From: Patescibacteria group bacterium
Lineage (GTDB): Bacteria > Patescibacteriota > Patescibacteriia > UBA9934 > GWF2-40-263
NCBI GenBank assembly: GCA_041661745.1
Contig: JBAZTR010000004.1
Location: 12,961 to 76,960, forward strand
DNA length: 64,000 bases
Direction of reading: 5' to 3'
Under the pieces are notes generated by a model that made no database searches, was not told the origin of the DNA, and saw only the letters and a program-made list of their open reading frames with translations. Position 1 is the stretch's first letter, and each line of letters begins with the position of its first letter. Shown piece after piece: positions 1,071-45,628 of the stretch. Made by a program: the position numbers and the translations under genes.

Positions 1071-1097
1071 GTTTGTTGATTAGTGTTCTTACCTCAC

Positions 1098-1140
1098 CCC
1101 TTCTCCCCTCTCCTTCGTAAGGAGAGGGGTTGGGGGGATC
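1098..1140. repeat. C/G-tract palindromic element (PE-C family): cccctctcc-ttcgtaa-ggagagggg
   Basis: Perfect 9-bp inverted repeat flanked by cctcacccc / ggttgggggg. The same family recurs at least 12 more times in the window. Confidence 0.8.
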
Positions 1141-2993: not shown

Positions 2994-3072
2994 GTTTGAG
3001 TATGTAGTATGTAGTGGGTAGGCAATAGATCAAACTGAAACTTTTGCCTACATGCTACCTACTACATACTAC
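2994..3072. repeat. Palindromic element PE-Y (gtatgtagtatgtagtgggtaggcaatagatc … gcctacatgctacctactacatac)
   Basis: About 80-bp imperfect palindrome. Five copies in the window: 2994, 7645, 24395, 28241 and 34063. All lie immediately 5' of minus-strand gene starts. Confidence 0.85.
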
Positions 3073-3084
3073 CAACTACCGCCG

Positions 3085-4154: not shown

Positions 4155-6170
4155 TCAAAAACCGACTTCAATGTTCAAGTCTTTAGCCAAGCCAAACGCT
4201 CCAGTGTAATTATCGTCACCCCAAAAATCAGTCAGTTCAGCCGGCGTGGCAGACATCACCTTCTTATCAAAATCCAAGGTCGTGGTCAAACCGTATTCAG
4301 CCGCGCCCAGTTGTTTTACAACATTTAAAGAATAATGACCGGAAGCAACCATGGTTGTAATTGAATCAGGTAGATAATATTCAAAAGACAGGCGACCACT
4401 TTCGCCGGGTTCGATGGAAATAAACGCGCCAAAAACCGTTAAATCAAGTTCTTGACCAACATCAACCGCACCGGCCGCGCCGGAAGGATTTTTTAATTTA
4501 TCATTAGCTAGCATTCCTAAACCGCTAATGAATTGGCTGCCCTTAGGAACATAAACCCGAGTGTAGGTTCGATACCGCGTAGTTTTCCAATCAAAGACTC
4601 CTTGATGTTCGTACTTAATGGTTACCTTGCCGATAAAACGACCGTCGCCGCTTGGTTTAATCGAATAAGAAATATCACGCAATACTTCAGGATCGGTTTT
4701 TAACGCGGCCAAGTTGGCATCAATTACCATTAAGAAATCACCATCAGATTTTTCTACCACTCCGCCCCAGCCGGCGTTACGAATAATTTCTTCAGTCTCA
4801 AGGGAAGAATTGGAAAAAAGAGCAATTTGCTTGTCGGATAAATTTTTCTCAACAGCCGAAACCACCGGCCCCCAGGCAGAAAACGGTAAGTCAAAAATTT
4901 TACCTTTCATTTCATTAAACAACGAAGTGATAATATCCTTGCGCTGTGCGTACGGCACGCCTGATTCTTGAAAACCGATTTCCACTTGATATTCGAGAGT
5001 GTCGGTAATGTTATCGGCGGAAAAAGTTTGATTACCAACAACAATCGGACCGGTGATTTTAAGCAAATCAGCGACAAAAGTTGGGGTGATGCCAATAACC
5101 CCATCAAAAGAAATCGGTTCTTGCACGGCGTTTCTTTGTTCGGATGGAATGGATAAAACTTCGGCCGTAAACATGCTAATGGCATTTCTGGCGGAAACGG
5201 AAAAATCAGGCGACCAATTGCTGTCGCGGAAAAACCATTTATTAGCTCCCAAATATTTTTTAAGCGGGGTTGGCGGTTCAAGTGAATAATAGGGATTAGC
5301 CGCCTCGTCTAAAAGATAAGAATCTTTAAGTTCAAGTTCGCGAATTTCGCCATCCTCAACCCGCAAAATTCCGTAAGTCCCGATAAATCCGCCGGCCGGT
5401 CGCATTTCCGTATTGTTTTCAAGAAGTAAGAGGAAATTCTTTTCTTCGCCCAAACCGGTAAAAGCCGGAATAATTCGCGCGGCCGTGGCCGCTAAAAACA
5501 AACCGTCGTAAACCTGATCTAAAGTATTTTCGATTTTTCGAACAACCGTGCCCATGGGCTCCGGGACATCGCCCAAATCATCAATATTATTTTTAATCAA
5601 ACCGGCTTTTTCCGCGACCAAAGCTAAATCGGGGGCCGCGCCGTTAATTCGTTGTAAAACAATTCGTTTAACTGTCGGCGACATATCGTCGTACTGAAGC
5701 GGTAAAAATTCGCCAACCTCACCGGTGACATTTTCGGTTTCGCCAATGAGTCGGGTAATATCCGCCCCCAAATCGGCAATGTCATCAACTAAAGCAAAAA
5801 GATCTGATGATGAATCTAAAAGAGTTTCAGCAGCCACCACCTGCTCGCCAACCCATGGTAAAAATTTAAGCCAGGCAATACGTTTAAAAGAGCGGTCGGC
5901 TTTGACAAAAGCGATTTCGGCCGCATCAAGAGAAACTTTAGCCTCATCAAAAGAAAAAACCTCAACAGCATCCTTGGCTTCATACAAACGATCACGGCCG
6001 TCTAATAAAGATGTGACCACCAACCCGGCATTAACCGCTGTCCAAATCGCCGTTAAACCAATTAAAAGAGATAATAAAAATAAACCGACCTTAAAAAACC
6101 GGCGGCGCGTGATTTTCTTTTTTTCCAAAGGCGGAGCGTAATGCGCTAAAAATTCGGAATCATGACTCAT
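4155..6170 (-). CDS. Large N-terminally membrane-anchored extracytoplasmic protein (DUF4012-like)
   Basis: 671 aa with a single N-terminal TM helix after a basic stretch, then a long extracellular region. It sits in a cell-wall glycosylation neighbourhood (GT4, MreB, GT2). The family call is tentative. Confidence 0.4.
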   Translation of the reverse strand: MSHDSEFLAHYAPPLEKKKITRRRFFKVGLFLLSLLIGLTAIWTAVNAGLVVTSLLDGRDRLYEAKDAVEVFSFDEAKVSLDAAEIAFVKADRSFKRIAWLKFLPWVGEQVVAAETLLDSSSDLFALVDDIADLGADITRLIGETENVTGEVGEFLPLQYDDMSPTVKRIVLQRINGAAPDLALVAEKAGLIKNNIDDLGDVPEPMGTVVRKIENTLDQVYDGLFLAATAARIIPAFTGLGEEKNFLLLLENNTEMRPAGGFIGTYGILRVEDGEIRELELKDSYLLDEAANPYYSLEPPTPLKKYLGANKWFFRDSNWSPDFSVSARNAISMFTAEVLSIPSEQRNAVQEPISFDGVIGITPTFVADLLKITGPIVVGNQTFSADNITDTLEYQVEIGFQESGVPYAQRKDIITSLFNEMKGKIFDLPFSAWGPVVSAVEKNLSDKQIALFSNSSLETEEIIRNAGWGGVVEKSDGDFLMVIDANLAALKTDPEVLRDISYSIKPSGDGRFIGKVTIKYEHQGVFDWKTTRYRTYTRVYVPKGSQFISGLGMLANDKLKNPSGAAGAVDVGQELDLTVFGAFISIEPGESGRLSFEYYLPDSITTMVASGHYSLNVVKQLGAAEYGLTTTLDFDKKVMSATPAELTDFWGDDNYTGAFGLAKDLNIEVGF

Positions 6171-7644: not shown

Positions 7645-7726
7645 GGGTTTGAGCATGTAGTAGGTAGTATGTAGGCAAAAGTTCCCGATTAGATCTATTG
7701 CCTACCCACTACATACTACATACTAA
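7645..7726. repeat. Palindromic element PE-Y (reverse orientation)
   Basis: Reverse complement of the 2994 copy: tagtaggtagtatgtaggcaaaagtt…gatctattgcctacccactacatactacatac. Confidence 0.85.
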
Positions 7727-10502: not shown

Positions 10503-10600
10503 GTCTATTTTTCCTCTTCCCCTCTACCCCTGCCCTCTCCTTCCCAAGGAGAGGGAGATCTCGTGGGCGCTCGACGCGGGGCTGTTTGTTTTTCTTCTCT
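10503..10600. repeat. PE-C family element (cccctgccctctcc-ttcccaa-ggagagggag) plus conserved tail gctcgacgcggggctgtttgttttt
   Basis: Inverted repeat plus a tail shared with 11040 and 17860. Confidence 0.75.
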
Positions 10601-10946: not shown

Positions 10947-10956
10947 ATTTTTAAAG

Positions 10957-11128
10957 TTATTTTCTTCCTCTCCCCCTCTATCCCCCTCTCCAAGTCCCTC
11001 TCCCCAACCCTCCCCCACTGCGGCAGTGAGGGAGGGAGATCTCGTAAGTGCTCGACGCGGGGCTATTTGTTTTTTAAAAAACCCTTCGTCCACTTCGTCC
11101 CCCTCAACCCCTTCGTCCCCCAAATCTT
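10957..11128. repeat. Compound PE-C element plus conserved 85-nt module
   Basis: cccctctccaagtccctctcccc…gggagggagatctcgt, then gtgctcgacgcggggctatttgttttttaaaaaacccttcgtccacttcgtccccctcaaccccttcgtcc. The second part recurs inverted at 17797..17885. Confidence 0.8.
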
Positions 11129-12110: not shown

Positions 12111-12215
12111 TTCTTTATTTTTTTAATCTTTCCTCCCCGCAAATCCCTCTCCCCTTACCCTCCCCCGTCGTGGCGACGAGGGAGGGAGAACTCACAGGAT
12201 CTCTGCTGATCCACC
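12111..12215. repeat. PE-C family element (ccctctcccc…cccgtcgtggcgacgagggagggaga)
   Basis: C/G-tract arms around a cgtcgtggcgacg palindrome. Confidence 0.7.
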
Positions 12216-18779: not shown

Positions 18780-18960
18780 AATATATTTTATCCTCACCAG
18801 TGCCCCCCCCGTTTCCCCTCACCCTTACCCTCTCCCTGCCAAGATCAGATGGGAGAGGGGGTGGTGTTATTTCGTCACAGGGGATTCCCCTCCCCCATCT
18901 GCTTTTTTAGCAGGGGGAGGGGTTAGGGGAGAGGGGCCAACAACACGAACGGGGCGGCGC
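18780..18960. repeat. Compound PE-C palindromic module (inter-cassette element, copy 1)
   Basis: ccctctccctgccaagatcagatgggagaggggg … cccctcccccatctgcttttttagcagggggaggggttaggggagaggggcc. Near-identical modules at 19741..19900 and 21541..21750. Confidence 0.85.
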
Positions 18961-18997: not shown

Positions 18998-19030
18998 AGT
19001 ATGCCCCCTTTTAGAAAAAGGAAAGAAACC

Positions 19031-19720
19031 ATGCAGGACACCATTAAGCATCTTCTCCTTATTGCCCGACTCACAGCACTGGCCAACAAGGTCAACGGAG
19101 TGATCACCGATAAAAGGCAGGAAAAGACGATCACAAAGCTGATCATGGGGGGATTGGTTCGCACTATCCTCTGGGGCGTGCTCTGGTACGTTCCACTCTG
19201 GCTTCTGGGGGACCCTTCGTTCCTTATGAAGCTCCTCTGGGCCAACCTGATCGTCAGCGCGATGCTCTTCGTTGTGCACGCAGTTGTTCCAAGCAACGTG
19301 ATCACTCGAAGGATGCAGCGGCAAAAGATTAAGACGAAAGGACCTATGGCGATCTTCGGTCTGTTCATTGTCATCTTCTTCATGCCCACAGCATTACTCT
19401 TCGCGGTGAAGGCGGGCGACCAGTACCAGGAGGTCTTGGCCGGCAAAATCCTGCGCGACGACCGGGCCACGCTCTTTTCGCGAAACGGACATCTGATCAA
19501 ACTCGTTGAGGAGTATTTTGTGAGGTCTGGAAAAGAGATGGACAAAACCGTCATGGATCAGGTCTGGGTGCTGGAGCAGGAGCTGCTCGACTTTTCCGAG
19601 CGAACTGGCGAGCTCGGCGAAAGCAACGAAATCACCTGGCCGGAGACCGAGCCTTTCCTCAGAAGAGTTGAGAGGCTGATCGACGAACTCACTGTCTTGA
19701 CTGGCAACACTTCCTCTTAA
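19031..19720 (+). CDS. GC-rich cassette gene 1: membrane protein (3–4 TM) with cytoplasmic C-terminal domain
   Basis: The track ORF starts at 19001, inside the promoter. Met at 19031 after AAGGAAAG is preferred. TM segments are LVRTILWGVLWYVPLWLL, LLWANLIVSAMLFVV and IFGLFIVIFFMPTALLFAV. GC is about 58%. Confidence 0.55.
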   Translation: MQDTIKHLLLIARLTALANKVNGVITDKRQEKTITKLIMGGLVRTILWGVLWYVPLWLLGDPSFLMKLLWANLIVSAMLFVVHAVVPSNVITRRMQRQKIKTKGPMAIFGLFIVIFFMPTALLFAVKAGDQYQEVLAGKILRDDRATLFSRNGHLIKLVEEYFVRSGKEMDKTVMDQVWVLEQELLDFSERTGELGESNEITWPETEPFLRRVERLIDELTVLTGNTSS

Positions 19721-19742
19721 CCCTCACCTGAGGGATTTTTTA
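19721..19742 (+). terminator. Cassette terminator cctcacctgagg + T-run
   Basis: Conserved hairpin (atcctca-cc-tgaggat) plus a T-tract after each of the three cassette genes, at 19721, 20484 and 21511. Confidence 0.6.
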
Positions 19743-19900
19743 TTCCCTCTCCTTCTGACGGCCATACCCCTCACCCCCTGCCCCTCTCCCTGCCAAGATC
19801 AGAGGGGAGAGGGGTTGTAAACTTTGTCACGAAAAGTTCCCCTCCCCCATCTGCTTTTTTAGCAGGGGGAGGGGTTAGGGGAGAGGGGCCAACACATGAG
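19741..19900. repeat. Compound PE-C palindromic module (inter-cassette element, copy 2)
   Basis: Near-identical to 18780..18960. Confidence 0.85.
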
Positions 19901-19902
19901 GG

Positions 19903-19931
19903 GAGGGCTTTCTGGACACAAACCAAAAACA
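19903..19931 (+). promoter_or_regulatory. Conserved cassette promoter tggaca-N17-taaaaa
   Basis: Same motif and spacing as at 18969. Confidence 0.6.
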
Positions 19932-19981
19932 ATGTTAAAAACACAAAAGTCGGCAAGCCTCTCGGCGGTGCGGAGGGAAAG

Positions 19982-20434
19982 ATGAAAATCGAACTAACCA
20001 CTCGTATGAGCGTACGTGTGGTCACGGGCGATCTGTCGGCAGACGTCCACCTCGAGGATCGTCGTTTGAAAGCACTGATTGCCCTCGCGTATAAATTCAA
20101 GGGTGAATGCGTCACCCTTGTCATCGATCCGATGATGGAAGAGGAAGCGACCTCGATCATCGACTCGATCGCGGGTCTCAACGGTGAGGGAGCCGACCAG
20201 ACAATCAACGGCCGACGCCTGGATGTGCACGAGCTCAGGGTTGATTGCGGAAACCAGCGCGGTATTGTCGTGAACCCCCACAACCCGAGATGCGATCTGC
20301 TTCTCCTCATGAGCATCGCAATCAAATCAGAACAGCTCACCGTCGAACTGCCGCCAACCGACACCATGGCCGAACTCGTCGACCGAATCTCGGTCTACCC
20401 CTTCCCGCACAAGGAAAGGGTCATGCCAGAATAA
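19982..20434 (+). CDS. GC-rich cassette gene 2: hypothetical soluble protein (150 aa)
   Basis: GGAGGG Shine-Dalgarno 5 nt upstream. GC about 60%. No domain recognised. Confidence 0.55.
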   Translation: MKIELTTRMSVRVVTGDLSADVHLEDRRLKALIALAYKFKGECVTLVIDPMMEEEATSIIDSIAGLNGEGADQTINGRRLDVHELRVDCGNQRGIVVNPHNPRCDLLLLMSIAIKSEQLTVELPPTDTMAELVDRISVYPFPHKERVMPE

Positions 20435-20483
20435 CTTAGCCACGCTGTAGCTCGCCACGAGCGAAGGCGGGACGCCACCCTCT

Positions 20484-20509
20484 CGATCCTCACCTGAGGA
20501 TCTTTTTAT
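20484..20509 (+). terminator. Cassette terminator (gatcctcacctgaggatc + T5)
   Basis: Conserved hairpin plus T-tract. Confidence 0.6.
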
Positions 20510-20550
20510 TTCTGGCTGGTCTCCTACTCTCCCAGCTTCCTAGTCTCCTA
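20505..20550. repeat. PE-T family fragment (ctcctactctcccagcttcctagtctcctaaca)
   Basis: Shares ctcctag/cctagtctcc words with the elements at 22166, 33533 and 41294. Confidence 0.5.
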
Positions 20551-20556
20551 ACACTC

Positions 20557-20585
20557 TGGACACAAATCCAAAACTATGATAAAAA
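20557..20585 (+). promoter_or_regulatory. Conserved cassette promoter tggaca-N17-taaaaa
   Basis: Same motif and spacing as the other two cassette promoters. Confidence 0.6.
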
Positions 20586-20622
20586 TCTGGGTCGCAAATT
20601 CCGCGCGACTCTGGAGGATTCC

Positions 20623-21492
20623 ATGAACGTAATCCATGATGGAGAAACCGGAGGCATCCGGGTGTTCTTCGGGGAAACCGTGATCGACATCGACCCCCGC
20701 GATCCGCGCTGTCATGGGCTGCTCAACGACCGGGGGTTCATGAAGATCGCCAACATCAAGTGCGGTTCGATCTTGATCGTCTTCGGCCGGAGCTTGAGGA
20801 CGAAGACGGCCCGCATGATGGGCGAGATCATGTTCGGCTGGACCCTCACCAATTCCTCGAACTCGCAAATCGTCGCCGAAAGAGGGGTGCGTGTGAGGAT
20901 CGGCGGCTGGAAGCCCATGCCCGTGCCGCACAACTGCGATATGTTCGAGCTCCTCGAACACGCGGACGCGCTGTACTTCGACACGATGGAGATCCGAACG
21001 AAGGCTTCGGAGGTGGCAGCCAGGGCCTTGGGGCCGTTCATCATGATCCCCTTCGTTCCGCCCGAGCCGACCCCGAGCGAACTGGCCATCGCCGAGTTCA
21101 GGAGAAGGACCGGCGTGGAGCCGACTTCGGTGCTGCTCGAAGCAGAGGCCGAGGATGCTCCCGAACCACCGGTGGCGGTTCCGGCTGGCGCCGAAGCGAA
21201 CTCCCCCATCCCCGGCCTCACGCCGGAGCAGGTCAAGAACCTGATCAGGCGATGCGACGAGCTGGGGTTCACCACTCGTGTGACGAACGGCCTCAGGACC
21301 GTCGGATGTGAATTCGTCTACCAGGTGGTGGAAAAAACCGGACCCGAGACGCTCGGGGCCAAGGGCCTCGGTCGCAGGTCCAATAATGAGCTCAGGGTGA
21401 TTCTCGCCGAACTCGGGCTCAGCTTCGGCATGAACTTCACCACCGAACAGCGAGCCGCTCTCGAGCGCCTGGCTCACCAGCTGCCGCGCTGA
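20623..21492 (+). CDS. GC-rich cassette gene 3: two-domain protein with C-terminal alpha-CTD-like HhH domain
   Basis: The C-terminus TTRVTNGLRTVGCEFVYQVVEKTGPETLGAKGLGRRSNNELRVILAELGLSFGMNFTTEQ parallels ORFs 16977 and 17386. The N-terminal 200 aa have no recognisable domain. GGAGGA Shine-Dalgarno. Confidence 0.6.
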   Translation: MNVIHDGETGGIRVFFGETVIDIDPRDPRCHGLLNDRGFMKIANIKCGSILIVFGRSLRTKTARMMGEIMFGWTLTNSSNSQIVAERGVRVRIGGWKPMPVPHNCDMFELLEHADALYFDTMEIRTKASEVAARALGPFIMIPFVPPEPTPSELAIAEFRRRTGVEPTSVLLEAEAEDAPEPPVAVPAGAEANSPIPGLTPEQVKNLIRRCDELGFTTRVTNGLRTVGCEFVYQVVEKTGPETLGAKGLGRRSNNELRVILAELGLSFGMNFTTEQRAALERLAHQLPR

Positions 21493-21510
21493 TCGCCCCC
21501 CCCTCCCCTT

Positions 21511-21537
21511 CGATCCTCACCTGAGGATCTTTTTTTA
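21511..21537 (+). terminator. Cassette terminator (gatcctcacctgaggatc + T7)
   Basis: Conserved hairpin plus T-tract. Confidence 0.6.
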
Positions 21538-21540
21538 ATT

Positions 21541-21750
21541 CCCTCTCCTTCTGAGCCGTTGTACCCCTCACCCATACCCCCGTGCCGATGTCACCCCCCC
21601 CCTCACCCCTGCCCCTCTCCCTGCCAAGATCAGAGGGGAGAGAGGTTGTAGACTTTGGCACAAAAAGTTCCCCTCCCCCATCTGCTTTTTTAGCAGGGGG
21701 AGGGGTTAGGGGAGAGGGGCCAACACGTGAGGGGAGGATTGAGGAGAGGG
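21541..21750. repeat. Compound PE-C palindromic module (copy 3, extended)
   Basis: Near-identical core to 18780 and 19741, with additional C-tract arms. Confidence 0.85.
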
Positions 21751-21953
21751 CCGACTGGACATCCTAATAGCATCTGGTAAACTAAAAATATTATGAAAGG
21801 CTTAACCGCCCAATTTGGCTTCTTTAGCTTCTGCTTTACCAAAGCGGGTGGTTTAGTTCTCTCTTAAAAGATAAATAAGAGGCCGCCCGCGTTCCCACGC
21901 GAGCGGTCTTTTGTTTTGTCCCTGATCCCGTAACCAGGCAAGGAGGAAAAGTC

Positions 21954-22115
21954 ATGGCCGCCACGAACCAAAACCGTGAAGATCCGCGTCGCTACACTGA
22001 AACGACCGACACTACCGGACAGCGTCTGGCCGTTGATCAGGACGGCAACAAGTTCCTTCTTCGGGCGGACCAGATCGTCTACAACGGTCAGGTCTACAAT
22101 CTCGGGGGCTTCTAG
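21954..22115 (+). CDS. Small GC-rich protein (53 aa), not in the ORF track
   Basis: AAGGAGGA Shine-Dalgarno 5 nt upstream of the ATG. A clean terminator follows at 22129..22157 (ggcagaa-aacac-ttctgcc + T7). Sequence: MAATNQNREDPRRYTETTDTTGQRLAVDQDGNKFLLRADQIVYNGQVYNLGGF. Confidence 0.45.
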   Translation: MAATNQNREDPRRYTETTDTTGQRLAVDQDGNKFLLRADQIVYNGQVYNLGGF

Positions 22116-22128
22116 TTCCCCACTCTCT

Positions 22129-22157
22129 CGGCAGAAAACACTTCTGCCGTTTTTTTA
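22129..22157 (+). terminator. Intrinsic terminator
   Basis: 7-bp perfect stem plus T7. Confidence 0.75.
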
Positions 22158-22165
22158 TTAAACAA

Positions 22166-22194
22166 GCTAGCCTCCTAGTCTCCTAGCATCCTAC
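22166..22194. repeat. PE-T family element (ctagcctcctagtctcctagcatcctacc)
   Basis: cctag-based tandem words shared with the elements at 33533, 41294 and 20505. Confidence 0.6.
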
Positions 22195-23666
22195 CGCACC
22201 TTCTTCGTCACATTAAATCCAAGATACTTCCCCAACATAAGGCGAGTCTGCGCATCAATGGCCGGTGCGGCTCCGAACACCGTAAAAGTAATGGGAAGAA
22301 GAAGCCACTGAAAAATCATGACAATCCAAGCGGTTGCTTTCACGGTCTTTGGTCGTGGTGGCAACATGGTTAAGGACAAGCCGGCGGTAATAAAGGCTCC
22401 ACCCATGGCTAGTCGCATAATCCATTCCAAAGTAAAAGGCGCGGCATGAATAATGGCCGAGCCACTGCCGGCCGCCACCCATAGCGGCAAATAACCAAGG
22501 GCAAAAATAAGAATCGGCGCCGTGGCCCAGGTGTACATGCCCTCAATATGATTGAAAAGATATTTAATTTTCTTGTTCAAGGGAATGAGCTTATCTTTTT
22601 TAAAGGCATCAACCATGACCGGAAAGTGTTCGACACCCCAAGCCCAGCGACGCTGCTGTTTGTACAAGGCTTTTAAACTCTCCCAATAGTTGGCGCCAAC
22701 GACCGTGTCCATGGAAACCGGCAAAAACATCGGTACCACGCGATAGTCGCCGTGGTATTTAAGGAAAGCTTGCAGAAAAATTCGCGAATCTTCCGAGACA
22801 ATATCTTTTTGCCAAAAATCAACATCAACTAACATTTTCCACGGCATGGAGTGCGAAGAAAAAGTCCAAAGTCGGTCCGAGCGAGCCAATTCCGTCAAAA
22901 GCCAAAAAACCGTACCAAAGGCGGCAATTCTAACCGGGGCGCGCGAGGTCCAAATATTATTGGAAAACAGGACAACTGGTTGATATGAGGCGTGCGTTGG
23001 ATTCGGCGAAGTTAAATACAAATACGAAAGGCAGGCGAAGTACGATGGGTGTACGACAGTGTCGACGTCAAACGAGGAAACAATAATATCTTCGGCTGGG
23101 ATATCAGAAAACTCACTGGCCAAAATCTTTTTAACTTCGTGGCCGGAATAATTAAGGTTGGAACCTTTACCGGGAATTTCGTCAGGCAGACCAACCGGAT
23201 GTTCGGTAACAATAATTTTTTTGAAGGTTTTGCTAAATTCCTGTGAAATAATCGCCGCGTTTTTTTGGAAACGCTCGTGATCACGTCCTTCACCGGCCAA
23301 GACAATAATCATTTTGTCCTTGGGGTAATGGGTCGCGGCAATGGAACGCAAGGTTTCACGAATAATTTCCGTGCTTTCTTTATAAGTCGGCAAGAAAATT
23401 AAATGATGCAGGCGCTGCCAATTATTTTGTTTTTGTAAGTCAGCAAACCAATCATACTTAATGGCGTGTTTGTATTCGCGCCAGGAAAGCAGCATGAAAA
23501 TGGCAAAATAAACAATTCTAAAAAACCAATAAAGGTCAAAAACAATAATAAAGACAACGGGAATAATTGGCGCGACAAACGACAAAACAATCGCCAAAAT
23601 TAAAGTCGTCCAGACCAAGGCGCCGGGGAAAATTTCCCAAATTCGATTTTTGCCATATGTCGACAT
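22191..23666 (-). CDS. Processive family-2 glycosyltransferase (CesA/chitin-synthase-like membrane GT2)
   Basis: N- and C-terminal multi-TM regions flank a GT-A domain carrying the QQRRW (QxxRW) motif of processive beta-glycosyltransferases. 491 aa. Confidence 0.75.
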   Translation of the reverse strand: MSTYGKNRIWEIFPGALVWTTLILAIVLSFVAPIIPVVFIIVFDLYWFFRIVYFAIFMLLSWREYKHAIKYDWFADLQKQNNWQRLHHLIFLPTYKESTEIIRETLRSIAATHYPKDKMIIVLAGEGRDHERFQKNAAIISQEFSKTFKKIIVTEHPVGLPDEIPGKGSNLNYSGHEVKKILASEFSDIPAEDIIVSSFDVDTVVHPSYFACLSYLYLTSPNPTHASYQPVVLFSNNIWTSRAPVRIAAFGTVFWLLTELARSDRLWTFSSHSMPWKMLVDVDFWQKDIVSEDSRIFLQAFLKYHGDYRVVPMFLPVSMDTVVGANYWESLKALYKQQRRWAWGVEHFPVMVDAFKKDKLIPLNKKIKYLFNHIEGMYTWATAPILIFALGYLPLWVAAGSGSAIIHAAPFTLEWIMRLAMGGAFITAGLSLTMLPPRPKTVKATAWIVMIFQWLLLPITFTVFGAAPAIDAQTRLMLGKYLGFNVTKKVR

Positions 23667-23720
23667 AGAAATTTCCCCTCCCCTTACGAAGGGGAGGGGT
23701 TAAGGGGTGAGGTTAGGACG
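23662..23720. repeat. PE-C element (cccctcccc-ttacgaa-ggggagggg-ttaaggggtgagg)
   Basis: Perfect 9-bp inverted repeat of the PE-C family. Confidence 0.8.
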
Positions 23721-24394: not shown

Positions 24395-24477
24395 TTAGTG
24401 GGTAGGTGTGTAGTAGGTAGTATGTAGGCAAAAGTTCCCGACTAGATCTATTGCCTACCCACTACATACTACATACT
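24395..24477. repeat. Palindromic element PE-Y
   Basis: Same orientation as the 7645 copy. Confidence 0.85.
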
Positions 24478-28237: not shown

Positions 28238-28240
28238 ATT

Positions 28241-28322
28241 TTTAGGTTCGAGTATGTAGTATGTAGTGGGTAGGCAATAGATTTAATGAAACTTTTGCCT
28301 ACATACTACCTACTACGTACTA
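28241..28322. repeat. Palindromic element PE-Y
   Basis: Lies between rplJ and rplL, immediately 5' of the rplL start. Confidence 0.85.
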
Positions 28323-28341
28323 AAAATCTTTAGTTATTTAA

Positions 28342-29458: not shown

Positions 29459-30346
29459 TTAAATCTTCTGGCACTTGGGGCAGTAGGCACTGCCCCGCCC
29501 GCCGACTTTAATTTTTTTTAAAATAGTTTTACAACGCCGGCATGACTGCCCTTCCCGACCATAAACTTTTAATTGTTTTTGAAAAGTTCCTTCTTTTCCA
29601 AAAGCATCGATGTAAGCGTCGGCCGAAGTGCCGTGTGCGGCAACGGCTTTTTTTAAAACAGAAACCGTGCCTTGATAAAGTTTTTTCATTTGCTCGTCGG
29701 AAATCTTGCCAACCAAGGTCATGGGGTGAATTCCGGCAAACCACAAAGCTTCAGAGGCGTAAATGTTGCCAATGCCGGCAATGCAGGTTTGATCCAAAAG
29801 ATGGGGTTTAATTTTTTTCTTGGGGGCCGAACGCAAACACATGGCCATTTTTTGCCAAGTAAAACTTTTGTCGAGCGGCTCGGGCCCGTAAGCTTGGGCC
29901 TCAAGATATTCTTCCAAACCTTTCTTATCAACCAATTTCAAAAAACCGAATTTACGAAAATCATTCCAATGCATTTCCTTGCCGCCAGACAATTTGAAAA
30001 TGACGTGTGTATGTTTGTCGACTCCACTTTCCCCTCCCACTTCTTGTCCCGCCGAAGCCCGGCGAAGGAGGATGGGGGAGGGGTTAGGGGTGAGGGATCT
30101 AACCAAAAATCGACCCGACATTTTTAAATGTGCCAAAATAAAATAATCACCGGAAAGTTTAAAAATCAAAAGCTTGGCTCGGCGTTCAACGCCGATAAAC
30201 TTTTTTCCTTTAAGAAGTTGAACAAATTTTTTGGGTGGCAAATTAAGCCGTCCGGAAAAATTGACGACAACATCTTTTATAGTCGCACCAACAATTGCTT
30301 GAGAGAGCTGACGACGAACGGTTTCGACTTCTGGTAATTCTGGCAT
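29459..30346 (-). CDS. mutM: Formamidopyrimidine-DNA glycosylase (Fpg/MutM) carrying an in-frame PE-C insertion
   Basis: N-terminal MPELPEVETVRR and C-terminal zinc finger CRRCKTILKKIKVGGRGSAYCPKC. About 27 extra residues (SLTPNPSPILLRRASAGQEVGGESGVD) are encoded by PE-C repeat sequence at 30017..30100. Confidence 0.85.
   Translation of the reverse strand: MPELPEVETVRRQLSQAIVGATIKDVVVNFSGRLNLPPKKFVQLLKGKKFIGVERRAKLLIFKLSGDYFILAHLKMSGRFLVRSLTPNPSPILLRRASAGQEVGGESGVDKHTHVIFKLSGGKEMHWNDFRKFGFLKLVDKKGLEEYLEAQAYGPEPLDKSFTWQKMAMCLRSAPKKKIKPHLLDQTCIAGIGNIYASEALWFAGIHPMTLVGKISDEQMKKLYQGTVSVLKKAVAAHGTSADAYIDAFGKEGTFQKQLKVYGREGQSCRRCKTILKKIKVGGRGSAYCPKCQKI
30017..30100. repeat. PE-C element inserted in-frame within mutM
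   Basis: …cccctcccacttcttgtcccgccgaagcccggcgaaggaggatgggggaggggttaggggtgaggg… lies inside the mutM reading frame. Confidence 0.8.
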
Positions 30347-34062: not shown

Positions 34063-34150
34063 GAGTATGTAGTAAGTAGTGGGTAGGCAATAGATCTAAT
34101 TGGGAACTTTTGCCTACATACTACCTACTACTTACTACAATACTACATAC
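34063..34150. repeat. Palindromic element PE-Y
   Basis: Same orientation as the 2994 copy. Confidence 0.85.
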
Positions 34151-38456: not shown

Positions 38457-39500
38457 TTATTCCCACGGCAAACCTTCTCGCCCAAACTGTCCGTAAACGG
38501 AAACCGCGCGATACCGCGGTTTCTTTAAATCCATTTTTTCGACAATGTCGTCAAGGTTAAAATTATAATTTTGTTTAACGTATTCCAAAAGAGTTCCCCC
38601 TCCCTCACTGGGGGAGGGCTGGGGAGAGGGATTTGAAGATTTGACGTCAATCATTACCGGTTCGGAACGTCCCAGAGTGTAAGTCAAAGAAACAACAGCC
38701 GAATCAGCCTTCCCTTCCTTAACCAATTGCTTGGCAACATATCTGGCCATGTAAGCTCCGGCCCGTTCGGCTCGCTGAGGATCCTTGCCAATAGGCGAAG
38801 AATCGCCGTGCGGTACCAGCCCGCCATAAAAATCCGCGGCCGCGCGTCGACCACTTACCCCAGCCTCGGACTGAAAACCTTGGGTAGAAAATTGCCCAAT
38901 GGGATTTATAAAAATTTGCGCTTGCTCGCCGCCAATAATCGGGGCTACCACACGCTCCAACAAACGGGCTTGAACATCAATCGGAGCAACGTCTGCCGCG
39001 TGACTGGCTAAAAGGGTTACGGCCGAAACTTTTTTCCCTTCCATTACCACTTGTGCTTTACCATCAGCTCCCAGCCAGTGAAACGAAGGGTCGAGTCGGC
39101 GCAAATCATCAAGACGACGAACCAAACCTTGGGCCAGAACCATAGGAAGTGGAAGAAACTCACGCGTCTCGCGGGTGGCGTAACCGTTCACGACAACCGT
39201 GTCGTACGAACCGTGTATTTTTTTTATTTCCTCGGAAGAACTTTCGATATTTACAAAAACTTCAATTTCATCAGAATAACCAATTTCGTGATACATTTGT
39301 TTGGCCAACGAGGCCACGTCAAAATCGGCCGTGGAATTAACTTCCCCGCCAACCATAACCATGCCGTGTGAACCCAAAACTTTAATGTCCAAACGGCTGT
39401 CCGGATCGCGCCGCAAATATTCATCAACAATACCGTCGGCGATTTGATCGCAGATTTTATCAGAATGTCCGGCACAAAGTGCTTCAACGGTTTTCGACAT
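38457..39500 (-). CDS. metK: S-adenosylmethionine synthetase (bacterial type) with in-frame PE-C insertion
   Basis: GHSDKICDQIADGIVDEYL N-terminus. About 14 extra residues (SNPSPQPSPSEGGG) are encoded by the PE-C repeat at 38593..38640. Confidence 0.8.
   Translation of the reverse strand: MSKTVEALCAGHSDKICDQIADGIVDEYLRRDPDSRLDIKVLGSHGMVMVGGEVNSTADFDVASLAKQMYHEIGYSDEIEVFVNIESSSEEIKKIHGSYDTVVVNGYATRETREFLPLPMVLAQGLVRRLDDLRRLDPSFHWLGADGKAQVVMEGKKVSAVTLLASHAADVAPIDVQARLLERVVAPIIGGEQAQIFINPIGQFSTQGFQSEAGVSGRRAAADFYGGLVPHGDSSPIGKDPQRAERAGAYMARYVAKQLVKEGKADSAVVSLTYTLGRSEPVMIDVKSSNPSPQPSPSEGGGTLLEYVKQNYNFNLDDIVEKMDLKKPRYRAVSVYGQFGREGLPWE
38593..38640. repeat. PE-C element inserted in-frame within metK
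   Basis: ccccctccctcactgggggagggctggggagaggg lies inside the metK reading frame. Confidence 0.75.
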
Positions 39501-39783: not shown

Positions 39784-39866
39784 TCTGCTTCCCCTCTCCT
39801 TACGAAGGAGAGGGGTGTAGGGGTGAGGTAAACAAAAAACCATCCTTTCTTAGGGTGGTTTTTTGT
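39783..39866. repeat. PE-C element (cccctctcc-ttacgaa-ggagagggg-tgtaggggtgagg) plus terminator hairpin
   Basis: Perfect 9-bp inverted repeat, then aaccatcctttcttagggtggtttttt. Confidence 0.8.
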
Positions 39867-41293: not shown

Positions 41294-41400
41294 GCTAAGG
41301 AGGCTAGGAGGGTAGGAAGCTAGGAGACTAGGCAGATGCGAGTTAAAGACTAGATTCCTAGCCTCCTAGCATCCTAGCCTCCTAAAAGTCTCCTAAAAGT
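41294..41400. repeat. PE-T compound element (inverted pair)
   Basis: aggaggctaggagggtaggaagctaggagactagg … cctagcctcctagcatcctagcctcctaaaagtctcctaaaag. Confidence 0.75.
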
Positions 41401-45531: not shown

Positions 45532-45628
45532 GGAGGCTTAGCTCAGTGGTAGAGCACGAGCTGATAGGAATCAGGGCCCTTGCCTGGTTACTAGCCCGTG
45601 GCCACAGGTTCGATTCCTGTAGCCCCCA
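45532..45628 (+). tRNA. Atypical tRNA-like gene (97 nt); anticodon region about 25 nt too long (possible intron or pseudo-tRNA)
   Basis: Acceptor GGAGGCT / AGCCCCC (one A·C mismatch). Canonical D-arm GCTCAGTGGTAGAGC. Canonical T-arm ACAGG-TTCGATT-CCTGT and a 5-nt variable loop. The anticodon stem CGAGC/GCCCG encloses 32 nt instead of 7. Confidence 0.4.

Follow-up and report, generated by a model that had tools for sequence, protein, structure and literature searches.

The mutM and metK genes of a Candidatus Uhrbacteria (Patescibacteria/CPR) genome each carry, in-frame, a copy of a dispersed hairpin repeat of roughly 40 bases, and we judge it probable (about 0.8) that these two copies represent a small, selfish palindromic repeat of the REP/REPIN/MITE type that is tolerated within protein loops. 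Throughout, the window refers to the whole stretch of 64,000 nucleotides that was analyzed. In these 64 kb, about 13 copies of the element match a relaxed pattern; 11 are intergenic and the remaining two are the inserts in mutM and metK. The locations of the genes and of the copies discussed here are collected in Table 1.

Table 1. The two host genes and the copies of the repeat within the window.
Feature	Position	Strand	Details
Solo copy	1091..1135	-	Loop TTACGAA; relaxed pattern
Degenerate solo copy	10513..10556	-	Between peroxiredoxin-like and pyrophosphatase-like genes; relaxed pattern
Solo copy	10996..11037	-	Between Bro-N gene and pyrophosphatase-like gene; relaxed pattern
Solo copy	12145..12187	-	Intergenic; loop CGTCGCCACGACG, the loop sub-family of the MutM inserts of L001, L083 and L085
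First composite copy	18815..18937	+	Intergenic; C-orientation unit, ~25-nt spacer, G-orientation unit (REPIN/MITE-like inverted doublet)
Second composite copy	19767..19889	+	~60-nt core 100% identical to the other two, flanks unrelated
Third composite copy	21598..21720	+	Intergenic
Solo copy	23675..23713	+	Loop TTACGAA; in a 46-nt gap between two - strand genes
mutM (Fpg)	29459..30346	-	295 aa, intact; insert at residues about 86-107; ORF list, PDB matches
Element copy in mutM	30029..30096	+	G orientation on + strand; 23-mer and relaxed-pattern match; left arm 30029-30038, enlarged loop 30039-30073, right arm and tail 30074-30096
Nested small hairpin in enlarged mutM loop	30050..30064	.	CGCCG-AAGCC-CGGCG; unique in window
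metK	38457..39500	-	347 aa, intact; insert at residues about 290-303; ORF list, PDB matches
Element copy in metK	38594..38630	+	TTCCCCCTCCC / TCACT / GGGGGAGGG / CT / GGGGAGAGGG
Solo copy	39791..39829	+	Loop TTACGAA; upstream of metK; compensatory stem variant CCCCTCTCC/GGAGAGGGG

Along its G-rich strand, the element reads (T)TCCCCTCCCC, a loop, and then GGGGAGGGG-TTA-GGGG[A/T]GAGGG; the left arm is written as TTCCCCTCCCC, and the right arm with its tail as GGGGAGGGG-TTA-GGGGWGAGGG. The stem pairs a C-run with a G-run over 9–10 bp, the loop is variable, and the 3′ tail TTAGGGGWGAGGG brings the G strand to four G-tracts. A G-quadruplex-type motif, GGGGAGGGGTTAGGGGTGAGGG, can be read directly from the sequence, with four runs of at least 3 G and loops of 1–7 nt, its folding being a prediction. 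The copy in mutM contains a 23-mer, CCCTCACCCCTAACCCCTCCCCC, that recurs at positions 18913, 19865, and 21696 with at most one mismatch, making four occurrences in the 64-kb window, where none is expected. Copies in the window sort into sub-families by their loops (TTACGAA, CGTCGCCACGACG, and ATCTGCTTTTTTAGCAG). Conservation of the loop within these sub-families is expected if the whole unit has been copied; convergence of the stems would not yield conserved loops.

Solo half-units are the commonest form of the element. The three composites in the window are inverted pairs of units around a spacer of ~25 nt, and they share a core of ~60 nt that is 100% identical between flanks that are unrelated. 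Their termini are inverted repeats of ~22 nt that bound the short spacer in a MITE-like manner, an organization that is lacking from the solo copies in mutM and metK. A further composite with terminal inverted repeats occurs at positions 2739–2895 of another locus (L001). The predicted hairpin energy is not better than that of composition-matched or dinucleotide shuffles (z = -0.45 and -0.88), because shuffled G-run/C-run sequences also pair; the case therefore rests on repetition of the sequence, and none of it on folding energy. The small hairpin nested within the enlarged mutM loop was considered as a second family of repeats and rejected, as it has no other copy in the window.

The initial annotation had attributed two further protein termini in the window to the same family. 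For the pyrophosphatase-like ORF (10947..11123), the N-terminal extension is indeed spurious: the Pfam Pyrophosphatase match is confined to the part that follows an internal Met, with the element at 10996–11037 lying upstream, so the extension is an artefact of ORF calling. The C-terminus of the Bro-N gene has another origin, its last residues being encoded by a different G-rich tract (CCCTTCGTCC repeats) that the relaxed pattern does not match.

The MutM protein of the window matches solved MutM/Fpg structures over residues 1–294 (E = 1e-54), and its residues 86–108 face only chain residues 87–89 of the solved Geobacillus MutM structure. Pfam domains were taken from an identical database protein (P0001); MetK also has a database counterpart with 100% identity, and the nearest named relatives, for MutM as for MetK, are Uhrbacteria. 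The gene strand reads the C-rich side of the element as LTPNPSP...GGE. The insert amounts to 19–22 residues, which corrects an earlier estimate of about 27: the protein has 295 residues compared with 276 in the nearest ortholog that is free of the insert, and the baseline loop is about 11 residues among 29 CPR orthologs. Orthologs with 76% (P0002) and 74% (P0010) identity lack the insert, and the DNA encoding the former (locus L084) has no element. The catalytic P2/E3 residues, the four zinc-finger cysteines, and the intercalating Met do not vary across the ortholog alignment, and the gene has a dN/dS of 0.08–0.13, with pairs of filled and empty genes included. An AlphaFold2 model of MutM has a mean pLDDT of 88; only residues 88–107 fall below 50, and they lie between strands 79–84 and 113–119. 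The initial annotation described both host genes as essential, a term that does not suit mutM, which is normally a non-essential gene.

MetK likewise aligns with solved structures over its full length (E = 5e-56). Translation of the metK copy from the opposite strand gives NPSPQPSPSEGGG. This insert adds about 10 residues relative to the nearest insert-free orthologs (337 aa) and only about 5 relative to MetK from E. coli, and most CPR MetKs, whose typical loop is G-x-GEKSRGAKMD, are at least as long. The nearest relatives, P0128 (81%) and P0129 (80%), have no insert and carry the loops SSNKVD/SSNKTD, and proteins P0121 to P0125 have Pro/Ser/Gly-rich loops of variable length. At the DNA level, three of these five (loci L203, L204, and L205) have the same element in the same orientation, with none in metK of L206. 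Filled and empty sequences are interspersed within the clade in a neighbour-joining tree of MetK, a pattern that fits one old insertion followed by decay and deletion, although multiple gains could also have produced it. The dN/dS for metK is 0.06–0.09, again including filled versus empty pairs. In the AlphaFold2 model (mean pLDDT 81), residues 293–301 score below 50 and are located between a strand (283–288) and a helix (304–311).

These observations support the initial proposal that a palindromic repeat sits in-frame within both genes, in the manner of Rickettsia palindromic elements (RPEs). Neither gene contains a frameshift or a stop, and their copies match the family of ~13 in the window. 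The extra residues are not native to the proteins, being absent from orthologs with 74–81% identity (P0002, P0010, P0128, and P0129), and purifying selection acts on both genes, with dN/dS values of 0.06–0.13. Both inserts fall in segments of low confidence between well-modelled elements, as had been predicted for surface loops. The description of the insertions as lineage-specific is correct for the inserts, which are absent from close orthologs, but not for the element itself, which is spread across phyla.

The same loop of MutM has been occupied repeatedly. In the window and in locus L002, the C-rich strand is the coding strand (giving LTPNPSP... and TPTPNPSP...); the MutM inserts of L001, L083, and L085 are in the G orientation and share the loop TGTCGCCACGACG. 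A separate copy in the C orientation is found in MutM of L207, in a clade that is only 58% identical to the window protein. The filled gene in L207 and the empty gene in its close relative L208 have 94% identity in protein and 89% in DNA, and the same values are obtained for the MutM proteins P0022 (filled) and P0027 (empty). Furthermore, the near-identical MutM proteins P0008 and P0013 carry entirely different loops. The loop has been struck at least twice, and probably three times, independently, or else inversions have taken place within it. Comparisons of filled and empty sequences, whose flanks and loops have strongly diverged, reveal no target-site duplication or clean boundary of insertion. 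Some MutM loops contain purine-rich inserts of the KGRKEGERELKGGK type, which were examined as a possible repeat and rejected, as they are not repeated in the window; in L209, for example, the insert GGGAAGGAAAGGG... is purine-rich and does not form a hairpin.

Direct reading of the element indicates that, in each orientation, one frame is closed by the linker (TTA/TAA/TAG) and two are open. The open frames encode peptides of PSP/LTPNPSP-type or GEG/GGGVRGEG-type, and all four are represented among verified genic copies, a distribution more in keeping with simple survivorship than with an evolved function in coding. Within the same element, the frame in L083 is GTC GCC ACG ACG GGG and that in L085 and L001 is (C)GT CGC CAC GAC GGG; the difference in frame implies that the peptide is not what is conserved. 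The DNA itself has changed little. Across pairs of MutM orthologs, the element cores are 83–96% identical compared with 42–46% for the four-fold degenerate sites of the same genes: for the window and L002, the matches are 22/23 in the core and 42/92 at four-fold sites; for L083 and L085, 42/45 and 35/84; for L001 and L085, 38/46 and 36/89; and for L001 and L083, 39/45 and 37/86. Either the copies are younger than the splits between the species, through re-insertion or conversion, or their DNA is under selection. A selected function could be what this disparity means, and it would then count against selfish copying.

The element extends well beyond Uhrbacteria. At least 117 species genomes, drawn from many phyla, contain the exact 22-mer GGGGAGGGGTTAGGGGWGAGGG. 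Among the matches listed, the hosts are Alpha-, Beta-, and Gammaproteobacteria, Chloroflexota, Peribacteria, Uhrbacteria, Planctomycetota, Gemmatimonadota, Prevotellaceae, and Geobacter; they include the isolates Stagnimonas aquatica and Mesorhizobium hunchu, and their GC content ranges from 32 to 72%. In nearly all of the 122 copies listed, a C-rich arm and a loop of 4–7 nt precede the 22-mer, and many copies lie within long open frames. Pfam-verified examples of in-frame copies are found, in other phyla, inside the Polysacc_synt_2 domain of a CapD-like gene, and further ones inside chorismate synthase, inside the MoCF domain of MoeA, between the two FGGY domains of the glycerol kinase GlpK, in RecJ, and in a GT1 glycosyltransferase gene. 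Genes for DNA repair (mutM, UvrA-like genes, and RecJ) are among the hosts. Where units are adjacent, inverted pairs number 62 and direct pairs 20. A single match was obtained in 2.9 million viral contigs, which gives no clear indication that phages carry the element. A search of Rfam matched no family and gave only sub-threshold matches to microRNA-like hairpins, and no description of the element sequence, or of DUF559 with repeats, was found in the literature searched. The occurrence of this family, almost unchanged, across many bacterial phyla and inside housekeeping genes appears to be new.

A candidate partner for the repeat is DUF559, a Vsr-like PD-(D/E)XK endonuclease. An iterated profile search located it in 10 of the 117 listed element loci and in none of 80 control loci, which were MutM loci of relatives from a metagenome scan (at most 44% identity among the matches listed); the same search found none in the window, or in Uhrbacteria loci besides L091. 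Complete DUF559 domains, bracketed by elements, are in frame within two MetH genes of Chloroflexota (L165 and L202) and a TrpC gene (L176), and the domain ends lie 3–92 nt from the element units. In the Uhrbacteria locus L091, a 119-aa DUF559 ORF (Pfam E = 1e-34) has a unit on each side, the two being oriented as terminal inverted repeats of ~58 nt, and the final stem of the upstream unit also serves as a GGAGG ribosome-binding site. Tail-to-tail pairs of units are separated by 25–47 nt, or by 341–418 nt when DUF559 is present, and the long and short pairs look like the autonomous and deletion-derivative forms of one unit. There are two opposite geometries, with tails pointing toward the DUF559 ORF in five loci and away from it in L091; the composites of the window share the outward tails of L091. 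These opposing arrangements make the identity of the mobile unit ambiguous. Only one of 120 DUF559 homologs has an element-like peptide in its called ORF, a figure that says little, given that the elements are located outside those called ORFs.

No mobilizing gene was found in the 64-kb window or in ~90 kb of related Uhrbacteria loci besides L091. A Y1/RAYT transposase was considered as the partner and rejected, as it is absent from the window and the Y1_Tnp gene of L001 is flanked by unrelated hairpins. We suggest, tentatively and with considerable doubt, that the repeat and the DUF559 minigene might constitute an undescribed selfish system that crosses phyla, a counterpart of REPIN-RAYT with a different enzyme. 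If so, repeats, and sometimes a whole nuclease domain, would colonize housekeeping proteins at their surface loops, in bacteria ranging from CPR to Proteobacteria and Chloroflexota. Repeated copying or gene conversion driven by the nuclease would keep resident copies nearly identical, and would account for the slow divergence of the DNA as well as for the recurrent insertions, in either orientation, into the MutM loop.

For the inserts as tolerated copies of a selfish repeat, a simple sequence of events can be proposed. Copies would land throughout the genome, and those that wreck genes would be lost. Survival of a genic copy would depend upon a net length that is a multiple of three, upon being read in a frame without stops (four of the six), and upon a location in a solvent-exposed loop; the stop-free frames would provide flexible peptides rich in Pro/Ser/Thr or Gly/Glu/Arg. 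The copies in mutM and metK have all three properties, so the enzymes would stay functional with a disordered excursion. There is good support for this mechanism of tolerance. How the element spreads we infer, and copying may, as a hypothesis, be driven by the DUF559 endonuclease minigene by analogy with REPINs and RAYT transposases. The peptide encoded by an insert would have no function of its own, with the same DNA being read in different frames across species, and what would maintain the similarity of the DNA is either continued copying or gene conversion from other copies, or selection acting on the DNA itself.

Other explanations have been weighed against this one. It is unlikely that a function at the level of DNA or RNA preserves the element, such that genic copies are selected and not merely tolerated; a hairpin or G-quadruplex switch, a protein-binding site, a pause in transcription or translation, and a DNA-uptake signal are candidates for this. 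Such a function could account for an exact 22-mer that is common to phyla with GC contents of 32% to 72%, for element cores in MutM that have diverged far less than four-fold sites, for the repeated occupation of one loop, and for the four G-tracts seen on the G strand. Compensatory variants of the stem also point in this direction, with CCCCTCTCC:GGAGAGGGG seen 12 times and CCCTTCTCC:GGAGAAGGG 6 times, but this count of covariation is biased as only copies with at least 8/9 pairs were kept. However, the close relatives P0002, P0010, P0128, and P0129 do well without the insert, both orientations are found at the same site with loops that differ in content, the host genes are functionally unrelated, and Rfam offers no matching family.

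Slippage might instead have expanded native loops of low complexity that resemble the repeat only in composition. The variable length of the loop across CPR and the purine-rich, non-hairpin inserts of some orthologs (for example, L209) are in keeping with this, but the 23-nt match to intergenic copies with at most one mismatch, where none is expected, makes it very improbable, and every insert checked at the DNA level has the matching stem partner and tail. Moreover, the intergenic copy at 12145 and the inserts that relatives carry in MutM share an identical loop sub-family, GTCGCCACGAC. There is similarly little prospect that the insert is an intron-like, intein-like, or ribosomal-bypass segment that is missing from the mature enzyme. 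A stable hairpin within coding sequence would suit bypass, and a hairpin is also a feature of bypass in gene 60 of phage T4. Removal would require neither a length that is a multiple of three nor freedom from stops, but the inserts always have both; 10–22 residues contain no intein blocks; and different species use different frames, all of them open. Least probable of all is an artefact of assembly, or the presence of pseudogenes. Assemblers can be misled by repeats, and the source genome was assembled from a metagenome, but independent assemblies of samples from JGI, ENA, Logan, and NCBI have inserts of the same type at these sites, and the ORFs are intact with a dN/dS of about 0.1.

Several known systems resemble the selfish repeat proposed here. 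RPEs are dispersed palindromes that lie in-frame within functional genes (Ogata et al. 2000, 2002; PMC10969869); they are about 100–150 bp in length, comprise ten families in Rickettsia, and encode a conserved peptide (PMC10969869). The present element shares with them a dispersed, palindromic nature, in-frame locations in unrelated and apparently functional genes, compatibility with the protein fold, and the lack of an internal transposase. As for their placement, the inserts form loops of low confidence in AlphaFold2 models whose other parts are well folded. The element nevertheless falls outside the RPE families as these are described: it is shorter (37–68 nt), it is read in several frames so that its peptide is not conserved, and its sequence is common to different phyla.

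In-frame intragenic GTAG/CGTC REPs are known in several species, giving ‘REP-decorated’ proteins, many of them encoded by repair genes (PMC3733652). The suggestion in the initial annotation that such insertions are rarely documented outside Rickettsia was therefore overstated, and the in-frame behavior is not itself new. Like REPs, the element is a short, G + C-rich, imperfect palindrome (the 20–40 bp class), mostly intergenic and often arranged as inverted doublets, with in-frame intragenic copies and repair genes among its hosts. It differs in having no GTAG/CGTC end tag: the 122 listed copies end in TTCCCC... and ...GAGGG, and CGTC is present only inside one loop sub-family. A single associated gene flanked by repeats recalls the REP/REPIN-RAYT arrangement, but there is no RAYT nearby, and the flanked gene, where there is one, encodes a DUF559 endonuclease and not a Y1 transposase. 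In addition, the REP/REPIN families that have been analyzed were defined within single genomes or genera (PMC3116915; PMC3733652), whereas the 22-mer described here is identical from CPR to Proteobacteria.

MITEs are also known to form in-frame fusions with host ORFs (PMC10969869). The composites are MITE-like in their inverted termini of about 22 nt around a short spacer and in having longer versions that carry an ORF. No partner transposase of the IS type was seen, and only DUF559 ORFs were found between inverted units; the prevalence of solo half-units is a further difference. The nuclease domain that lies in frame within MetH and TrpC of other phyla resembles a homing endonuclease, but there is no splicing signature of an intron or intein, DUF559 has no demonstrated homing activity, and the inserts in the window are of 10–22 codons with no ORF of their own. 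PARCEL repeats were considered for comparison and rejected, as they are tandem arrays of 25 residues. The element is best described as a new variant among REP/REPIN/MITE repeats, marked by near-identity across phyla and by a possible nuclease partner from a different family.

The conservation of the element across phyla, its recurrent occupation of a single loop, and its association with DUF559 are features for which no description was found in the literature searched. For genome annotation, the repeat explains lineage-specific ‘PSP...GEG’ loops and spurious extensions of ORFs in metagenome-assembled genomes, in CPR and in many other bacteria. For protein evolution, it provides a natural experiment in which one loop of an enzyme has acquired the same DNA, oriented either way and read in several frames, and selection on the gene has not been lost despite these insertions. 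With regard to mobile elements, a sequence of 22 bases that is conserved from Uhrbacteria to Mesorhizobium, and often found beside DUF559, points towards a widespread system whose mechanism is undescribed. The association with the element also offers a testable function for DUF559, a large family of domains of unknown function.

An exact 22-mer of the element was found in a search of genome contigs in at least 117 species genomes, distributed among many phyla and spanning GC contents of 32-72%. In nearly all of these copies (loci L086-L202) the 22-mer follows a shared C-rich arm and a loop of 4-7 nt. Viral contigs gave only one match to it. At several of these loci the element directly flanks minigenes for DUF559, a Vsr-like endonuclease (see the table below), and DUF559 occurs at 10 of the 117 element loci versus none of the 80 control (MutM) loci.

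Location of features associated with the element or with other repeats and inserts
Feature	Location	Remarks
DUF559 minigene and element	L165 5128-5561	Host gene MetH; entire DUF559 domain in frame within it
DUF559 minigene and element	L202 3002-3628	Host gene MetH; entire DUF559 domain in frame within it
DUF559 minigene and element	L176 599-985	Host gene TrpC; entire DUF559 domain in frame within it
DUF559 minigene and element	L091 7437-7934	
DUF559 minigene and element	L089 3463-3925	
MutM ortholog with purine-rich loop insert	L209 4001-4852 (P0013)	Also P0004, P0006, P0015-P0017
(P)GGAGSGLxAG insert in MetK orthologs		P0168, P0172, P0176, P0196, P0223
Other palindromic repeat families	Window 2999-3077, 7658-7725, 24412-24477, 28238-28327, 34068-34139	Also 41298-41383

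The MutM loop that holds the element is filled in several orthologs by purine-rich DNA that forms no hairpin (GGGAAGGAAAGGGAAAGAAAGGG...) and encodes KGRKEGERELKGGK-type peptides. One such ortholog, P0013, is near-identical to P0008, whose loop contains the hairpin element; the purine-rich DNA may be a decayed form of the element or have another origin. In a related Uhrbacteria contig (L001), the region syntenic with that around mutM carries an inserted gene for an IS200-like Y1 transposase (5412-5858). The hairpins that flank this gene bear no relation to the element.

Further palindromic repeat families are present in the window, including a AGGAGGCTAGGAGG-type palindrome and a GTAG-rich one (TAGTATGTAGTATGTAG ... 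CTACATACTACCTACTA) that resembles GTAG-tagged REPs. At its 3′ end the Bro-N gene, whose C-terminus the initial annotation had linked to the PE-C family, overlaps another short repeat, CCCTTCGTCC(N)CCCTTCGTCC (11060-11123), which is distinct from the PE-C element. All three composite elements lie in intergenic gaps of a stretch (19000-22500) with a GC content of 52-65%, compared with a window mean of 46%; the stretch contains ORFs that lack Pfam matches and, at 20623-21492, an ORF encoding an RNA polymerase alpha C-terminal-like domain.

A tRNA was called by Rfam on the plus strand at 45532-45628 (50.6 bits), with an anticodon loop of 31 nt versus 6 in the model; ARAGORN found no tRNA over the window. 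This locus looks like a tRNA-Ile(GAU) into which a hairpin of ∼24 nt has been inserted behind position 37/38, an unusual arrangement in a bacterium.

Within or beside the MetK loop that carries the element, other CPR MetKs have a recurrent insert, (P)GGAGSGLxAG. It is distinct from that encoded by the element and suggests that a second element family uses the same site.
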